Shown here piece after piece: positions 135 to 35,055 of a stretch of 64,000 nt of DNA. The notes beneath the pieces are model-generated. The model searched no databases, was not told the DNA's origin, and worked only from the letters and a program-made list of their open reading frames with translations. The stretch comes from Minisyncoccota bacterium (GTDB taxonomy: Bacteria; Patescibacteriota; JACMRA01). Where the stretch lies: NCBI GenBank assembly GCA_014376695.1, contig JACMRA010000003.1, positions 7,881-71,880 of the forward strand, in the 5' to 3' direction. A program made the position numbers and the translations under genes. Position 1 is the first letter of the stretch; each line of letters starts with the position of its first letter.

Positions 135-159
135 GCCCTTAGTAAATCAAATCGTATTT

Positions 160-186
160 TACCTCCGTTCTGGAGGTATTTTTTTT
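160..186 (+). terminator. Intrinsic terminator after rpsG
   Basis: TACCTCC-gttct-GGAGGTA hairpin followed by a T run. Confidence 0.8.
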
Positions 187-234
187 AAGTGTTTCTTGGC
201 TAGAGTTTACTTTTAACCTATTAAAATCAAATAC

Positions 235-263
235 TTGACTAAGCAGTGTGTGTGTGTTAGCAT
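235..263 (+). promoter_or_regulatory. Sigma70-type promoter with (GT)6 in the spacer
   Basis: TTGACT (235-240), 17-bp spacer containing (GT)6, TAGCAT (258-263). Confidence 0.65.
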
Positions 264-339
264 TTGAGTAGATACAAGGCTATTAGTCGGTGCATCTTTT
301 TTACAGTTTTCAAAATACAATCAAATCCAGAGGTCTTTC

Positions 340-9461: not shown

Positions 9462-11096
9462 CTATTTTTTGACAACTTTTCGAAGAACGATCATTACAAC
9501 CACTCCTAACGCTGCTACTATAGATCCAGCAATTAAGAATATTGAGTTAGCTCCAGTTCGTGACAGTGTTTTTACCACTGGCTTGGCTACTACTGGTGTT
9601 GTGGTTGTGCCTGTATTGACTAGTGCTATTGTTGTATTGTCAACCATTGCTGTTTTGGTAGTATCTACTTTGGCTCCCATTCCCAATTGTGAGAAGATAG
9701 ATTGTCTGCCAGTTAGAGATCCTGTTGGTACGTTTGTACATGTAACAGTGATACCGCTTAGAGTGCAGGTACCTGCTGGGGTTGCATCTCCAATAGCCAA
9801 TTTTAGATCCATTGGTAGAGTCTTGCTATTTGGCAATGTAAATGTACAAGTAGTAGTTGTATTTTTGACTACATTTTTGTTATCATTACATTTTAGGTCC
9901 GTTGTTTTTAAATCATCCAAAGTTAAAGGTGTTTTAACAATTACTATCGGAGTAAAACTTGAAGCAACTCCTGTCAAAGTCATAACCCCGCTGGCAATAA
10001 GCGAGCCGCTAGTTAATGCCCCAGTAGGACAGCTTGCTGGAATAACTTGATTAGCTGTTGGTGTAAAGACGTTCATCAACATATTACCGTCGATAACACA
10101 AGTTCCATTTGTGTATTGAGCCTGCCCAATATAACTGCTTCCTGTAGTTGTGATTGCACCAGTTACATTTTGACCAATTGTTCCAGTCAAAACTCCAGTT
10201 GGATTAGTTCCAAGTGTTTTTGCAGCCAGTGCTGGAGTAAAATTACTTGCGACCCCTGTTGCTGGCACTACACCAGTTACTGTTGTTGCCTCTAAACTAC
10301 CAGTAGTCATAACACCAGTTGGACATCCAGCAGGGATAACCTGACCCATAGTAGGCGTGAAAGTTCCATTCAGAATATCACCGACTATTGTACAACCCAT
10401 ACCAATGACCACTTTGGCTGGGCCATTGTAAGTTGAGTTGTTTGTGACAATGCTCCCGCCGACAACATCTCCAACAGTCCCAATTAATTGACCGGAAGGA
10501 TTAGTTCCCATGGTTTTGACAGCCATTCCAGCAGCTCTACAATCACCAACTACATTAGATACTGTAAAAGTGATCTGAGGCCCTGGTACTGTGAACCATT
10601 CTGCCCCTGGATTAACGTGTAAAGTAGCTGTTGGATTGGTACCAGATTTGGTTAGGGTATTTTTCATCATCAATTCAGGAGTTGTAGAAATAGCTAGACC
10701 TCCAGTTGTGTTGTTTCCAGTATATGTTAATCGTTGAGACCAGATAGCAGGAGTCGCTCCTATAACAGGACTTACCTGTTGAAATACAGGATCATAAAAT
10801 CCGCTCGCAGCCGTAAATTTACCCTCTTCGGTGATAGTTGGTGTAGTCGTAAAGTTTGCTAAATCAAACCAAGTACTGACATCTGCCAGATTCATTGTGT
10901 TTGAACCAGTAGATTGTACACATGTTGATAATTCAACAGTAGTCCCTTTGTCTTCTAATCCGATGATTAAATTAGCTGTGTTGACAGCTGCGAAGGCTCC
11001 TATGTTACCGAGGCTTGCAAGTGCAAACAGCTGGATAAAAGTAAAGCCAAGTGTGAATAGATAATTCAAAGAATTAATTTTTGTTTTTTTGGGCAT
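9462..11096 (-). CDS. Thr/Gly-rich surface protein with two internal repeats and a C-terminal LSRTG-TM-basic sorting-like signal
   Basis: Signal peptide; repeats at 10233-10517 and 9948-10220; ends LSRTGANSIFLIAGSIVAALGVVVMIVLRKVVKK; alternative TTG start at 11108. Confidence 0.8.
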   Translation of the reverse strand: MPKKTKINSLNYLFTLGFTFIQLFALASLGNIGAFAAVNTANLIIGLEDKGTTVELSTCVQSTGSNTMNLADVSTWFDLANFTTTPTITEEGKFTAASGFYDPVFQQVSPVIGATPAIWSQRLTYTGNNTTGGLAISTTPELMMKNTLTKSGTNPTATLHVNPGAEWFTVPGPQITFTVSNVVGDCRAAGMAVKTMGTNPSGQLIGTVGDVVGGSIVTNNSTYNGPAKVVIGMGCTIVGDILNGTFTPTMGQVIPAGCPTGVMTTGSLEATTVTGVVPATGVASNFTPALAAKTLGTNPTGVLTGTIGQNVTGAITTTGSSYIGQAQYTNGTCVIDGNMLMNVFTPTANQVIPASCPTGALTSGSLIASGVMTLTGVASSFTPIVIVKTPLTLDDLKTTDLKCNDNKNVVKNTTTTCTFTLPNSKTLPMDLKLAIGDATPAGTCTLSGITVTCTNVPTGSLTGRQSIFSQLGMGAKVDTTKTAMVDNTTIALVNTGTTTTPVVAKPVVKTLSRTGANSIFLIAGSIVAALGVVVMIVLRKVVKK

Positions 11097-11205
11097 AATT
11101 TTTGTCAAAATTTTTGTTTGAGGTTTTTTGTATTTGTATTTTAGATGACGGACGAATCTAAATCTCTTCTATATTCTAACATAGTTTTACTTTCTATGCA
11201 AATTC

Positions 11206-13669: not shown

Positions 13670-14548
13670 TTAGATATTGAATTTGGGAATAAATCGTCGA
13701 GCAACGAAATAAAGGATAGTAACCGACATAATCGAAATTAGTGTGTAGCTGACAAGCTCTGCACTACCAGTTCTTGCGGTTGAGATTATTGTGGCTGGCT
13801 TAGTTGCGACTACTTGGGCAACTGGTACGGGCGTAGGTTTGACTTGGACAACTTCTGGGGTTGCAGTAGTAGGGGTTGGTGTGACTTGAACGGCTGGTGT
13901 TGGAGTAGCTTGAGCAACAATATCAGCGGCTTCAATTTCTAATATGACTTGTTGAATAGCAGGCTTTGAAGAATAGTCGGGAGATGAAAGTGCATCTTGA
14001 TTAAACATTATTGAAGTCTTATCACCAACTTTTGCGCTAGGAGATACTTTGATCACCAAGTTAATACATCCAGTTCTATTAGCTGAAAGAGCTGAAATTT
14101 GAGCTCCACCGTCAACTAGCTTGGCACTTTGCGGTCCGTAATTACTTAGCTTAGTAGGTGAAACTAATGTTGGAGAGATACCGTAACTTGTTCCTTCAGG
14201 AAAATTGTAGCAGCTAGAAGGTGCCGCTGGTTTGTCATTTTCGGCGGATGGGTCCCCTGCAAAAATATCGCTAGCTGAAGTTAGCTCAAAGGCTTGTGCG
14301 GTAGCAGTATTTTGTAAATTAGATAATACTGCAGTAACCGCAACCTTAGAGATTTTTACACTGTTTTGCTGATCGCCATATTTGAAAGCAACGTTAATGG
14401 GCACTGTTCGGTCTTGTTTGATTTTTATTGTTGACACTGATTGGCTAAAAGTGTTAATATTCAAGCTAGATACAAGAAGAACTGAGGCTAAACTCACGGT
14501 AATTCCAAGGTTTAAAATTTTAGTTATAAGGTTGGCTTTTAAAGACAT
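13670..14548 (-). CDS. Surface protein with a Pro/Thr linker and a C-terminal TARTG-TM-basic sorting-like signal
   Basis: Signal peptide, Cys pair, PT-rich stalk, ends TARTGSAELVSYTLISIMSVTILYFVARRFIPKFNI. Confidence 0.8.
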   Translation of the reverse strand: MSLKANLITKILNLGITVSLASVLLVSSLNINTFSQSVSTIKIKQDRTVPINVAFKYGDQQNSVKISKVAVTAVLSNLQNTATAQAFELTSASDIFAGDPSAENDKPAAPSSCYNFPEGTSYGISPTLVSPTKLSNYGPQSAKLVDGGAQISALSANRTGCINLVIKVSPSAKVGDKTSIMFNQDALSSPDYSSKPAIQQVILEIEAADIVAQATPTPAVQVTPTPTTATPEVVQVKPTPVPVAQVVATKPATIISTARTGSAELVSYTLISIMSVTILYFVARRFIPKFNI

Positions 14549-30007: not shown

Positions 30008-30988
30008 ATGAAATTATACCGCCAGTTAAACAATTTTCTTCATACTATTCCAAATAAAATCAAAATTTTGGTCATTCCTTTTATGATTTTTGGCTTGTTT
30101 TTTACTAGTTCAAATTGGTATGAATTGTTTGTAAATGGGGCTAAATTAGATAATCCTAGCCAAACTGTAACACCCACGCCCCCAAAGCCCAAGCCTCAAC
30201 CGGTTATCAAAGACCTAAGCCAAAATCTAATCCCCAGAGATATCAACGGGGAATCGATTACGAAGCTTGTATCTAAACTAAATAATAACTTTAATATGGG
30301 TTTTATATCAAGTAAAAATTTAACAGAATTAAATATTAAATACCCGATTAGTCTAAATAATGAAAAGCAAATTCTAGTTCCAAAAGACGAAACTAAAGCA
30401 TATAAATCGCTCGACTCAATCTATCCAGCACCGACAAAATGCGAGCAAAAAAACAATATTATATTCGAATCGCAAAAGATTTTTGACGCACCAATTCAAT
30501 ATCTAAATTATGGCGATATGTTTTTTACAAATCCAGATGGTACCTACGACTTTAATCGCTTACCTGAATATAAAAACCATCCATATTACGGCGATATTGA
30601 CAGTCCTACTCAAAAAAAATTAGAACTCGGGGTTATTCATATGACTCCTATAAGCCCACTGGCTGGCGAACAGGGGAATAGTTATTTTGCTGGGCATTCT
30701 AGTAATTGGCCACATATAAAAAGTGCTTACAACGAGGTATTTAAACCTTTGCTGGGTGACGTGCCAAATGACCAAATATTTACCATTTGGGATCATAAGT
30801 GTCGGAAATTAAATTTTAGGGTTTTTGAGTCAAAAATTATCGAATCTGAAGATGTTGCTGAGGCCTATAAAAGCTTCGGGGCAGAGAGGAGGATTGCCAC
30901 CTTGCAAACTTCGGTTGTGAGTTACAGGCCCGTTGGTGGATGGCAAGTTTATCAGCGCAAATTAATTAGAGGTGAATTGGTACTCTAA
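30008..30988 (+). CDS. Sortase-family protein with Ser at the catalytic Cys position
   Basis: N-terminal TM; LELGVIH, G.QGNSYFAGHSS (His), TLQTS (canonical TLxTC), downstream Arg in QRKLIRGEL. Confidence 0.8.
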   Translation: MKLYRQLNNFLHTIPNKIKILVIPFMIFGLFFTSSNWYELFVNGAKLDNPSQTVTPTPPKPKPQPVIKDLSQNLIPRDINGESITKLVSKLNNNFNMGFISSKNLTELNIKYPISLNNEKQILVPKDETKAYKSLDSIYPAPTKCEQKNNIIFESQKIFDAPIQYLNYGDMFFTNPDGTYDFNRLPEYKNHPYYGDIDSPTQKKLELGVIHMTPISPLAGEQGNSYFAGHSSNWPHIKSAYNEVFKPLLGDVPNDQIFTIWDHKCRKLNFRVFESKIIESEDVAEAYKSFGAERRIATLQTSVVSYRPVGGWQVYQRKLIRGELVL

Positions 30989-32089
30989 AAAGTTTATCAG
31001 GGCCTCCTCATCGGATTTTATATTTGCTTGCTTAATTTTGCTTTTGTATTCTTCCAAGATATTTGGATTAGTAATAATTCTTGTCAGTAAGCCCAGAAGC
31101 TTATCAAAATCCGGTTCAAAAATCCCAAAACCGTTGTTAAGAACGAAGTCGACATTGCCTTTTTCTTGGGGCTTGATGTAATCATAAATTATGACAGGCT
31201 TAATTTGGCTCAAACTTTCAAATATAACCGCTGGGCCGCCTTTGGTTACAATTACATCACAATTTGAAATTAGGTCTGGAATTGCGTCTGTAAAGGCCCA
31301 AATATTAAGTATATGATTGCTGGTTGAATGTGTATTTTTTATTTCGAGGCATTGTTTGTATAGATTTTGATTTCTACCGCAGACCAGATTGATTATTGTT
31401 TTTTCTTTTAGTTCCAAGATTTTGCTTAGTAATTGAGCTCCCTTGGGAAGCGACGAACCTCCACCAAGGATTAATATTGAAAAGGGCTGATTATTGTTAT
31501 TGACTTTTGGTTGGATAATTGTATTGAAAAGGCTGTTGAAAAAATACCCGAATTTGATTATGGTTGATTTGATTTTGTAATTCTGAGTTACAGCTTTGGC
31601 GATGGCAAAGGCTTGATCGGAAAATATAATATACTGGCCCGGAAAAGTGAACCAGATTTTTGGAACTTGAAATATCTCGCTTACAATAGTGTAATTCGGG
31701 ATTTTTAGCTGATTACTGATCAAGATATTCTGTGAAAGCTTTTGCCCAAAGAAATATGTTGATAAAATCATATCAGGATTATTTTCTAGGATCATTTTTT
31801 TGATATGATTTTGGCATAGCAATTTGAAAATCCAATATGTACATAAGTTGAACCAGTGAAAATTCCACATTTTGTTAATTGAAATCCACAGCCACGGTAA
31901 GTTTTCTGTAAGTATTACGTAACCTGTATCAAATTGCTTTTGCGCCCATTTCGGCGAGCTGGCCAGCATATCAACCAAAATAACTTTGTGACCGAATTTT
32001 TCTAACTTTACTTTTATTGATTTTGCGGCCGATTCGTGGCCTCCACCGGCTTTTACGAAAAGAATGAGGATGGTTTTTTGCTTTGACAT
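30962..32089 (-). CDS. MGDG synthase/UgtP-like glycosyltransferase (GT28)
   Basis: AGGGHESAA, GGGS, VCGRN, TKGG...ES, QEKGN. Confidence 0.85.
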   Translation of the reverse strand: MSKQKTILILFVKAGGGHESAAKSIKVKLEKFGHKVILVDMLASSPKWAQKQFDTGYVILTENLPWLWISINKMWNFHWFNLCTYWIFKLLCQNHIKKMILENNPDMILSTYFFGQKLSQNILISNQLKIPNYTIVSEIFQVPKIWFTFPGQYIIFSDQAFAIAKAVTQNYKIKSTIIKFGYFFNSLFNTIIQPKVNNNNQPFSILILGGGSSLPKGAQLLSKILELKEKTIINLVCGRNQNLYKQCLEIKNTHSTSNHILNIWAFTDAIPDLISNCDVIVTKGGPAVIFESLSQIKPVIIYDYIKPQEKGNVDFVLNNGFGIFEPDFDKLLGLLTRIITNPNILEEYKSKIKQANIKSDEEALINFLEYQFTSN

Positions 32090-33534: not shown

Positions 33535-35055
33535 ATGACTCCAAATTCAGTCTTAAAAGTTATTAACAATTTATTTACTAATAAGCGCCTTGGATATTTT
33601 TTGCTAGGGGTGGGTTTGTATATAATTATCAGATTTCCGGTTTGGTTTTATCCTGTAGACTCAGATCATTGGATATTTCAGGCCATTGGCCAGCATTGGA
33701 TAAACGGAAAAGGTCTTTTATATATAGATTTTTGGGATCATAAGCCACCTATGATTTTTTTGATTAATGGGATTATATCCCTGTTTACAGGGTCTGACTT
33801 ATTTTTATTTAGGGTCGTCCTGACTGTTTTGAACATTGTTGAAATATACCTTTTTTATATTTTACTCAGGAAACTCAAACGGTTCGGAGAGTACCCGCTG
33901 TTTTTGACCGCGATTTACGCATTGGTCAGAAACTTTAGTCAGATTGCATCCTCTGGCAATAATACCGAAAATTTTGGAGTAATTTTGATTTTGATAAGTT
34001 ATATACAATTTGTTAGTTTTTTGGAGCAGTCAAAAGCGCGGTTTTTGTTGTTAATTGGAATTTGTTTTGGTTTAATATTCTGGCTCAAAGCAAATATGAT
34101 TTTGTTATTTTTACCAATGTTAGGTCTGATTATCTGGCGGTTATTTGTAATATATAAGGCATCAAAAAGCCCAGGGAAAAGTTTAAAGTTATTTATAATT
34201 TTATTCGCTCCTTTGATTTTAATTTCTTTGGTAATTATAGGGTATTTTGGTAGTTTTGGATATTTGCAGGCGCTCTGGATTGGATCATTTGGTTACAGCG
34301 CCAAATATGTACAAGTTAGTTTTCGCGGGGCTTTATCCGATACTAAGGTATTTCTGGCTATACTATCCCCATTGTTAGCAATTTTGATTATGCCAATTTT
34401 TGGTTGGTATCAAAAAATCAAAGCTAAGCAATTAACGTCTCTTGAGATATTTATTGTGGGTAGTAGTTTGATAAGTATGGTATATTTGGGTATATCGGGG
34501 ACTTATTATCCATATTACCTACTTATTTGCTTACCTATTTTGCTGATATGGGTTGCAATTGGACACTTAAACCTTTCGGGTGTGCTCAAAAAATTATCCA
34601 CGGCTGTAATTTGTTTGGGGTTGTTAATAAGCTTTGGAATTAGTTACAAACAGCCACTCAATTACTTTACAGGTAGTGTCTCGAGGCAGCAAGCAGAATA
34701 CTATAAAATCGCCGATTATATCAAATCAAAGACCAATAAAGACGATCTGATATTTACCTATATTTACGGAGCCAGTCTATATGGCTTATCTGAGAGACTG
34801 CCGGCAACTAAATATATGTCAGCTAGTTTTATGTTGCTTGATTACCGGGAAAAATTAGGTTTCGGGATTAATACTACCGTTTTGAGCGATCTCAAGCGTA
34901 CTCAACCAAAATTGATTGTAATGTACAAAGATAAAAACCCAAAAACCAGCCTATATGCCACTAACTATCCTATTCAAGAGTTTTTATTAAGCGACTATAA
35001 TACCATTGCAAAAGAATTTGAAACACTGGAAATCAGGACACGGACAGTCAGATAA
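33535..35055 (+). CDS. GT-C fold (ArnT/PMT-like) membrane glycosyltransferase
   Basis: Many TMs; LY.DFWDHKPP and NTENF motifs. Confidence 0.8.
   Translation: MTPNSVLKVINNLFTNKRLGYFLLGVGLYIIIRFPVWFYPVDSDHWIFQAIGQHWINGKGLLYIDFWDHKPPMIFLINGIISLFTGSDLFLFRVVLTVLNIVEIYLFYILLRKLKRFGEYPLFLTAIYALVRNFSQIASSGNNTENFGVILILISYIQFVSFLEQSKARFLLLIGICFGLIFWLKANMILLFLPMLGLIIWRLFVIYKASKSPGKSLKLFIILFAPLILISLVIIGYFGSFGYLQALWIGSFGYSAKYVQVSFRGALSDTKVFLAILSPLLAILIMPIFGWYQKIKAKQLTSLEIFIVGSSLISMVYLGISGTYYPYYLLICLPILLIWVAIGHLNLSGVLKKLSTAVICLGLLISFGISYKQPLNYFTGSVSRQQAEYYKIADYIKSKTNKDDLIFTYIYGASLYGLSERLPATKYMSASFMLLDYREKLGFGINTTVLSDLKRTQPKLIVMYKDKNPKTSLYATNYPIQEFLLSDYNTIAKEFETLEIRTRTVR

Follow-up and report, generated by a model that had tools for sequence, protein, structure and literature searches.

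A sortase-fold protein of Patescibacteriota with serine at the nucleophile position

Sortases of classes A to F (PF04203; MEROPS C60) are defined in textbooks and in classification as cysteine transpeptidases, and the gene described here, at 30008..30988 on the forward strand of a window of 64,000 nucleotides from a Minisyncoccota bacterium (Patescibacteriota; GenBank assembly GCA_014376695.1, contig JACMRA010000003.1, positions 7,881 to 71,880), encodes a protein with a serine where that cysteine would be. Like sortases A to F, the window protein is built on an eight-stranded barrel (Z 12.0-12.7 to structures of classes A, C, D, E and F), has a hydrophobic N-terminal helix that may be a membrane anchor, and retains the histidine of a G-H motif, an arginine in the last strand and the motif T-L-x-T followed by the nucleophile position, and its genome encodes proteins that combine a sorting motif with a transmembrane (TM) segment and a basic tail. 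Unlike them, it has serine for the defining cysteine and glutamine for the hydrophobic residue two positions ahead of it (position -2), as well as a 75-residue conserved extension, an insertion at residues 169-195 and, behind the nucleophile strand, only a very short loop. The closest cysteine proteins are members of the same clade in the Candidate Phyla Radiation (CPR), namely long proteins with TLQTC[KR] (e.g. P0068) and types with TLQTC[YD]PPG or T[IL]QTC[QKV]KG, which share family, architecture, the glutamine at -2, the histidine and the arginine, but in which cysteine is usually followed by Lys, Arg or Gln, whereas the serine forms have Ile or Val there. A short serine family with the motif LLTLQTSYP differs from the window protein in having no parts other than a TM segment and barrel, and in reading GHSSD where the family of the window protein reads GHSSN.

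That acyl-enzyme transpeptidation works with serine is evident from the serine DD-transpeptidases (penicillin-binding proteins) as against the cysteine LD-transpeptidases, both of them with folds unrelated to that of sortase, and the chymotrypsin-like and Ntn-hydrolase folds, unrelated as well, illustrate how Ser, Thr and Cys can each serve within a single fold. We know of no Ser/Cys swap described for the sortase fold. A natural serine sortase was not found described in the full-text literature, subscription-only papers and supplements lying outside that search, and passages in PMC4736985, PMC6744442 and PMC13278184 mention sortases of CPR genomes with no natural serine form among them. Peptidase folds with altered catalytic residues and a non-catalytic role are found among the pseudopeptidases, such as metacaspase 4 and the pilus pseudo-signal-peptidase SipA of Streptococcus pyogenes, which acts in a sortase pathway; going by what is reported of them, they are single proteins or small groups, whereas here hundreds of sequences keep a full His/Ser/Arg set, with serine and cysteine interchanging.

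Fold and catalytic positions

The reading frame is a single one with an ATG start and a TAA stop, and from the evidence below we can conclude that it encodes a sortase-fold protein in which the catalytic histidine and arginine are present and serine occupies the site of the nucleophilic cysteine. The relevant motifs are NSYFAGH230SSNW, RRIATLQTS302VVSY and QR317KLIRGELVL, and the positions that matter are the following.

30695..30697, forward strand: His230 (CAT) in G-H-S-S-N, the catalytic His position; 152 of the 157 aligned rows, the query among them, have His here, and it is invariant in the 80-sequence alignment A2
30905..30907, forward strand: Gln300 (CAA), nucleophile -2; the one column in which all serine groups differ from the canonical cysteine sortases
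30911..30913, forward strand: Ser302 (TCG), the position of the Cys in TLxTC; 121 of the 157 rows, counting the query, have Ser
30956..30958, forward strand: Arg317 (CGC), the catalytic Arg position; 151 of the 157 rows, counting the query, have Arg, which aligns to the catalytic Arg of class C

At the level of sequence the assignment to PF04203 is a marginal pass (residues 201-303, 28.3 bits against a cut-off of 26.6), and the NCBIfam sortase models, those of classes A to F included, match neither the window protein nor its serine paralogue in the same genome. A search of the PDB with the single sequence returned nothing relevant, and a search with the family profile retrieved one sortase only, of class C (E 0.0033); the profile alignment to that solved structure places VTLQtS over VTLLTC and the arginine over the catalytic arginine. 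An AlphaFold2 model computed from alignment A2 (predicted local distance difference test, pLDDT, 88.5; predicted template modelling score 0.76) has as its top Foldseek matches structures of sortases C and A (E 5e-9, probability 1.0). The best match in VIA-align is 7cfj_A, with Z 12.7 and a root mean square deviation of 2.2 A over 127 aligned residues in the model range 148..326, and a class E sortase follows closely (Z 12.5, 1.9 A); altogether 18 sortase chains score at least Z 8 in this structural search, the next scores being 5.3 and 3.6. Since the defining cysteine is absent and no curated class model is matched, we describe the protein as a serine variant of the sortase fold that lies outside every named class.

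The public annotation of these proteins is itself a problem, in that the members of the short family are named sortase with no note of the missing cysteine and those of the long family, to which the window protein belongs, are hypothetical proteins. The short family passes the generic NCBIfam model TIGR01076 only, hence its naming, and goes under the names 'sortase', 'sortase A' or 'LPXTG-site transpeptidase (sortase) family protein' in public records, most of which derive from metagenome-assembled genomes (MAGs) of Doudnabacteria or Patescibacteria. Its members are about 190-230 residues long, with the motifs GHSSD and LLTLQTSYP[VI]G, and the trees place them as a sister or an ancestral grade to the long family.

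Conservation of the serine and its interchange with cysteine

All seven homologues from a database clustered at 90% have serine at position 302, at identities to the window protein of 93, 72, 67, 40, 34, 36 and 33%. An exhaustive search of representative sequences gave 179 proteins at E<=1e-3, of which 96 reach E<=1e-10, and in an alignment of 156 proteins, made up of 150 listed representatives and six close homologues absent from that list, the nucleophile column holds Ser 120, Cys 26, Thr 4, Asn 2, Gly 1, Asp 1 and two gaps; among the best 60 matches there are 59 serines and one threonine. Alignment A2 has just five invariant columns, and His230, Gln300 and Arg317 are among them. Within the family that GTDB assigns to the genome, a search with the window protein found a relative in each of the 24 other genomes (1-4 copies each), and matching PF04203 to 25 genomes of this family gave 67 regions, of which 65 could be read by hidden Markov model: 43 with serine, every one of them with the histidine and the arginine as well, 18 with cysteine and 4 unreadable or degenerate. 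Of the 6343 candidates in a profile search for the short family, 1904 clusters pass E<=1e-5, and in the newly listed top members that were checked the histidine, serine, arginine and glutamine are all present (112 of 112).

Contigs about 92-93% identical cover the gene in sequencing runs of two other studies. Among the 35 strain differences listed inside the reading frame, 24 fall at third codon positions and the remainder cluster in the linker that follows the N-terminal helix, where the non-synonymous differences are concentrated at 30165-30193; this distribution points to purifying selection on the reading frame between strains. The listed differences, beyond which there are 95 more, bear on the frame as a whole rather than on codon 302. 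Judged from these comparisons, Ser302 is a conserved residue and not a private allele. The first-pass annotation had read an otherwise intact sortase pattern here, with the histidine in AGHSS, the downstream arginine, and TLQTS with the codon TCG at 30911-30913, all of which the reading frame bears out. It had furthermore held a single-base error to be unlikely, and this also stands, TCG being two substitutions away from both TGT and TGC and the homologues agreeing on serine down to 33% identity; its proposal that TLQTS might be conserved across a clade is borne out by the counts given above for the representatives, the GTDB family and the short family. The contrary outcome that it had envisaged, with cysteine in all close homologues and relaxed selection on this allele, is not what we find, since those homologues have serine and the allele is under purifying selection.

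Several relatives carry tandem duplicates of the long serine form (L008:6795-7889; G003:C8 21123-23011; G016:C32 17162-18523). According to their labels, the MAGs behind four related loci (L018, L020, L025 and L040) are Limisphaerales or Bdellovibrionales; all other loci are labelled CPR.

In a FastTree phylogeny of 155 barrel sequences, 137 rows form a clade with support 90, outside which lie 17 canonical cysteine sortases and the cysteine row P0137. Within the clade the nucleophile position is Ser in 119 rows, Cys in 10, Thr in 4, Asn in 2 and Gly and Asp in one each, so that 133 of the 137 rows have a residue capable of acting as nucleophile, and the long family forms a subclade with support 100* in which two cysteine groups are nested. 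A quick IQ-TREE tree of 72 rows agrees with this picture, and the grouping of all 22 cysteine rows into one clade is rejected by the approximately unbiased (AU) test (delta log-likelihood 88.4, p-AU 0.0015), a p-value that is optimistic since the group was named after the first tree had been seen. Because cysteine rows are nested within the serine clade and a single cysteine clade is rejected, serine and cysteine have interchanged at least twice. The codons of 52 distinct genes of the long family are TCT 17, TCA 15, TCG 9, TCC 2, AGT 3, TGT 5 and TGC 1; both serine codon families are thus in use (TCN 43, AGT 3), and the cysteine codons TGY form the one-step bridge that joins them.

The surroundings of the nucleophile follow a pattern of their own. 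Gln300 is found in 100% of the long serine (90 rows), short serine (30) and long cysteine (10) groups, as against Met in 68% and Ile in 18% of the 16 canonical cysteine rows. The residue following the nucleophile is Lys in 50% and Arg in 20% of the cysteine revertants and Ile or Val in 96% of the serine forms, and a basic residue after cysteine would fit a tuning of the thiolate. In the four rows that have lost His230 (P0086, P0093, P0102 and P0107) the nucleophile site reads Asn, Asn, Thr and Asp, respectively, which suggests that the histidine and the nucleophile decay together. These four and P0091 look degenerate as a group, with the nucleophile lost in some (Asn, Gly, Asp) and the histidine mostly gone as well.

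A proposed catalytic serine and its alternatives

The reading that we favor, with a probability of roughly 55%, is that the window protein is an active acyl-enzyme variant of sortase with a Ser-His-Arg set. It is favored because this set is kept, because replacements of the serine are mostly cysteine or threonine, because serine and cysteine have interchanged repeatedly, and because histidine and nucleophile are lost together; taken as a whole, this substitution pattern reads as that of a catalytic nucleophile under constraint and not as that of a dead site. The protein would be a membrane-anchored, extracytoplasmic enzyme in which Ser302 replaces the sortase cysteine as the nucleophile, His230 acts as general base and acid, Arg317 stabilizes the transition state and Gln300 lines the active site, and catalysis would pass through an O-acyl (ester) intermediate rather than a thioester. 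The outcome would be the cleavage of secreted proteins followed by their transfer or release, transpeptidation probably prevailing over hydrolysis, and the likeliest substrates would be the proteins of this lineage that end in a C-terminal sorting signal of the form x-[RK]-[TS]-G. The more far-reaching claim that sortases with a true serine nucleophile make up a large and ancient CPR clade, which performs Ser-His-Arg transpeptidation, has switched repeatedly between Ser, Cys and Thr and provides the sole xRTG-anchoring enzymes of some lineages, such as the 11 of 26 genomes of the GTDB family that yielded serine types only, can be put forward tentatively at best and is in our estimate unlikely to hold in full.

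A number of observations weigh against the catalytic reading, and several of them speak at the same time for a pseudo-sortase, that is, a protein that has kept the fold and a groove binding peptide or cell wall and serves sorting-signal proteins, or the cysteine sortases of the same genome, as receptor, chaperone or regulator without catalysis of its own. A change of Cys to Ser usually cripples cysteine peptidases. The engineered C184S variant of Staphylococcus aureus SrtA is reported to have dramatically lower activity (PMC4827206). A natural peptidase homologue in which serine replaces cysteine, metacaspase 4 of Trypanosoma brucei, is likewise reported to be a pseudopeptidase (PMC3220528). 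The alignment columns contain no third catalytic residue specific to the serine forms, such as an acid that could orient the histidine, and the glutamine at -2 is also present in some cysteine sortases. Furthermore, the serine forms occur as one to four paralogues per genome, and among 20 related loci there is neither a conserved partner gene nor a substrate operon.

The distribution of the cysteine sortases belongs on the same side of the balance. The genome under study (955,781 bp in 16 contigs, 78% complete, GC content 39.4%) has four sortase-domain genes, namely a canonical cysteine sortase with LVLMTCWP (80 bits), another with LTIQTCQKG, a serine paralogue with LTLQTSVVS and the window gene, and the two cysteine enzymes could process the xRTG proteins themselves. 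Among 26 genomes of the GTDB family, 11 yielded the serine type only, 14 have at least one cysteine sortase and in one the sole copy lies at a contig end; we considered the serine-only genomes as proof of anchoring by a serine sortase and rejected this, since these MAGs are 68-93% complete and the presence of a cysteine sortase varies within one genus. Across the phylum, 54 of 60 sampled genomes with a completeness of at least 95% have a match to PF04203, and the 60 regions from 34 of these near-complete genomes comprise 52 with cysteine, 2 with serine and 6 unreadable, a count that covers the 34 genomes and leaves about 53 matches in 20 further ones outside it. Among these 34, every genome with a single sortase match has a cysteine enzyme (15 of 15), and the short serine form, found in 2 of the 34, is accompanied by a cysteine sortase in both. 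The serine forms thus appear to be paralogues restricted to certain lineages, as a rule with a cysteine sortase beside them, and the serine form may be an accessory and not necessarily the anchoring enzyme.

The pseudo-sortase nonetheless has to contend with the substitution pattern. Drift is normal in pseudoenzymes, yet the His, Ser and Arg positions are among the most conserved columns in more than 230 sequences from two sister families, nearly all replacements of the serine are cysteine or threonine, serine and cysteine have interchanged repeatedly, and histidine and nucleophile are lost jointly in a few degenerate members. We regard a non-catalytic role as the main alternative, though a less likely one. 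Of the two possibilities that the first-pass annotation had left side by side, a serine transpeptidase or protease and a non-catalytic binding protein, the former is favored by this pattern without being proven by it. Its check for cysteine sortases in the genome turned up two, and its thought that a canonical sortase accounts for the substrates may hold, since these two could process the xRTG proteins. The suggested co-occurrence with RTG-tail proteins was found in the genome itself and in four of five relatives that yielded serine types only, but the tie of these proteins to the serine form in particular is unsupported, as nothing favors the serine form over the cysteine sortases as their enzyme.

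If the catalytic reading is right, these proteins would be the first natural serine-nucleophile sortases, insensitive to oxidation and working through an ester intermediate, and would interest both enzymologists and those who use sortases to ligate proteins; alternatively, they would constitute a very large family of pseudo-sortases at the surface of CPR bacteria, organisms in which an episymbiotic way of life rests on the biology of the cell surface. Since one and the same scaffold occurs naturally in this clade with Ser, Cys or Thr, the question is directly testable, with the clade's cysteine members as natural comparison enzymes and its degenerate copies as natural negative controls.

An active Ser-His enzyme might also have a different substrate or chemistry, shedding surface proteins by hydrolysis or transferring the acyl group to a glycan, a lipid or a component of the host envelope. 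Esters are aminolysed less readily than thioesters, which would count in favor of such a departure, as would the conserved N-terminal extension and the 169-195 insertion that are the long family's own, the glutamine in place of a hydrophobic residue at -2, and the envelope glycosylation genes near some loci, i.e. GtrA-type proteins at 3 of 20 and glycosyltransferases beside the window gene. The signal from the neighbourhood is however weak (3 of 20), nothing is added in the short sister family to a minimal TM segment and barrel, and sorting-signal proteins are present wherever they were looked for, and we accordingly consider this explanation improbable. An artefact of sequencing or assembly, or a recently inactivated and decaying allele, can be dismissed, as the codon is two changes from cysteine, all close homologues have serine, copies 92-93% identical appear in independent runs, and the intact reading frame has differences biased to third codon positions; nothing was found that speaks for it.

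Architecture, candidate substrates and gene neighbourhood

In the AlphaFold2 model the protein is laid out as an N-terminal helix, a disordered Pro/Lys linker, an alpha/beta extension and the beta-barrel, and the loop after the nucleophile strand is very short. The parts are as follows.

30008..30988, forward strand: whole reading frame, 326 residues and TAA; a member of the 'long' serine-sortase family by homologue searches
30053..30124, forward strand: hydrophobic helix near the N terminus (about residues 16-39, KIKILVIPFMIFGLFFTSSNWY...), from the sequence and from the model, which has a helix at 16-39
30125..30226, forward strand: Pro/Lys-rich linker, residues 40-73; poorly conserved and of low confidence, with pLDDT <50 at residues 41-54
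30227..30448, forward strand: conserved N-terminal extension, residues 74-147; small alpha/beta unit in the model
30449..30985, forward strand: sortase beta-barrel, residues 148-326, from VIA-align and Foldseek

Like its counterpart in sortases, the helix at residues 16-39 is presumed to anchor the protein in a type II orientation and would then be inserted in the membrane. The extension belongs to no Pfam family, and an Atlas feature search with it gave matches that all score <0.8; D78, G81, G98 and I100 are invariant in it among close relatives, and the alignments to two class C sortase chains (2w1k_B and 7cg9_A) begin at model residues 75 and 79 and thus reach into the extension. Alignment columns furthermore reveal an insertion within the barrel, at about residues 169-195, that is specific to the family.

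Sorting-signal proteins of the genome, which end in a short motif followed by a hydrophobic stretch and then a basic tail, were picked by eye from 39 regular-expression candidates. The eight so chosen carry the motifs LSRTG (two), LSKTG (two), LIRTG, TARTG, LIRSG and LVGTG. Two of them are encoded in the window, and the others lie on contigs C2, C7, C10, C11 and C12.

9462..11108, reverse strand: candidate substrate of 548 residues, ending ...KTLSRTG-ANSIFLIAGSIVAALGVVVMIVL-RKVVKK; from the regular expression and reading, no Pfam domain
13670..14548, reverse strand: candidate substrate of 292 residues, ending ...STARTG-SAELVSYTLISIMSVTILYFVA-RRFIPKFNI; from the regular expression and reading, no Pfam domain

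Homologues of one candidate in the five genomes that yielded serine types only have, in four of the five, tails such as LPRTGG, SVRTGG, TVRTGG, VVRSGG and LIRSGG, and the sorting signals of this lineage take the form x-[RK]-[TS]-G(-G), not LPxTG. A complex prediction for the barrel (from A2, residues 148-326) with a 34-residue LSRTG tail gave a score of 0.02, which is uninformative either way, and the sorting-signal expression found 4 hits among 486 open reading frames (ORFs) in the flanks of related loci, where the pattern was probably too strict.

The second, divergent cysteine type of the genome lies at C10:87001-87879 on the reverse strand (L002) and has the motif T[IL]QTC[QKV]KG, a length of about 290 residues and a score of about 40 bits against PF04203; it falls in no NCBIfam class, has the glutamine at -2 in common with the serine forms, and occurs also in the relatives L072, L074, L075, L079, L083, L088, L103 and L108. 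The serine paralogue, at C2:24841-25935 on the forward strand (L003), is 36% identical to the window protein, has the motif LTLQTSVVS and ends in a cysteine-containing stretch (ELVCPGGEVCKE).

Adjoining the window gene is a gene for an MGDG-synthase-like glycosyltransferase (30962..32089, reverse strand), and the 3' ends of the two convergent genes overlap by 27 bases (30962-30988); a PMT_2 glycosyltransferase gene lies nearby (33535-35055, forward strand). At three of the 20 related loci (L013, L030 and L034) a GtrA/DPMS-type membrane protein is encoded directly downstream. A terminator scan returned none, the junction between the window gene and the convergent glycosyltransferase gene included, and a promoter scan gave 8 hits against 7.2 in shuffled sequence, i.e. 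no excess. An alternative genetic code was considered and rejected, as the 369 ORFs of at least 300 residues in the genome end in TAA (225), TAG (126) or TGA (18) and have normal lengths under table 11; TGA is thus a rare stop in this genome, closing 18 of these 369 frames.

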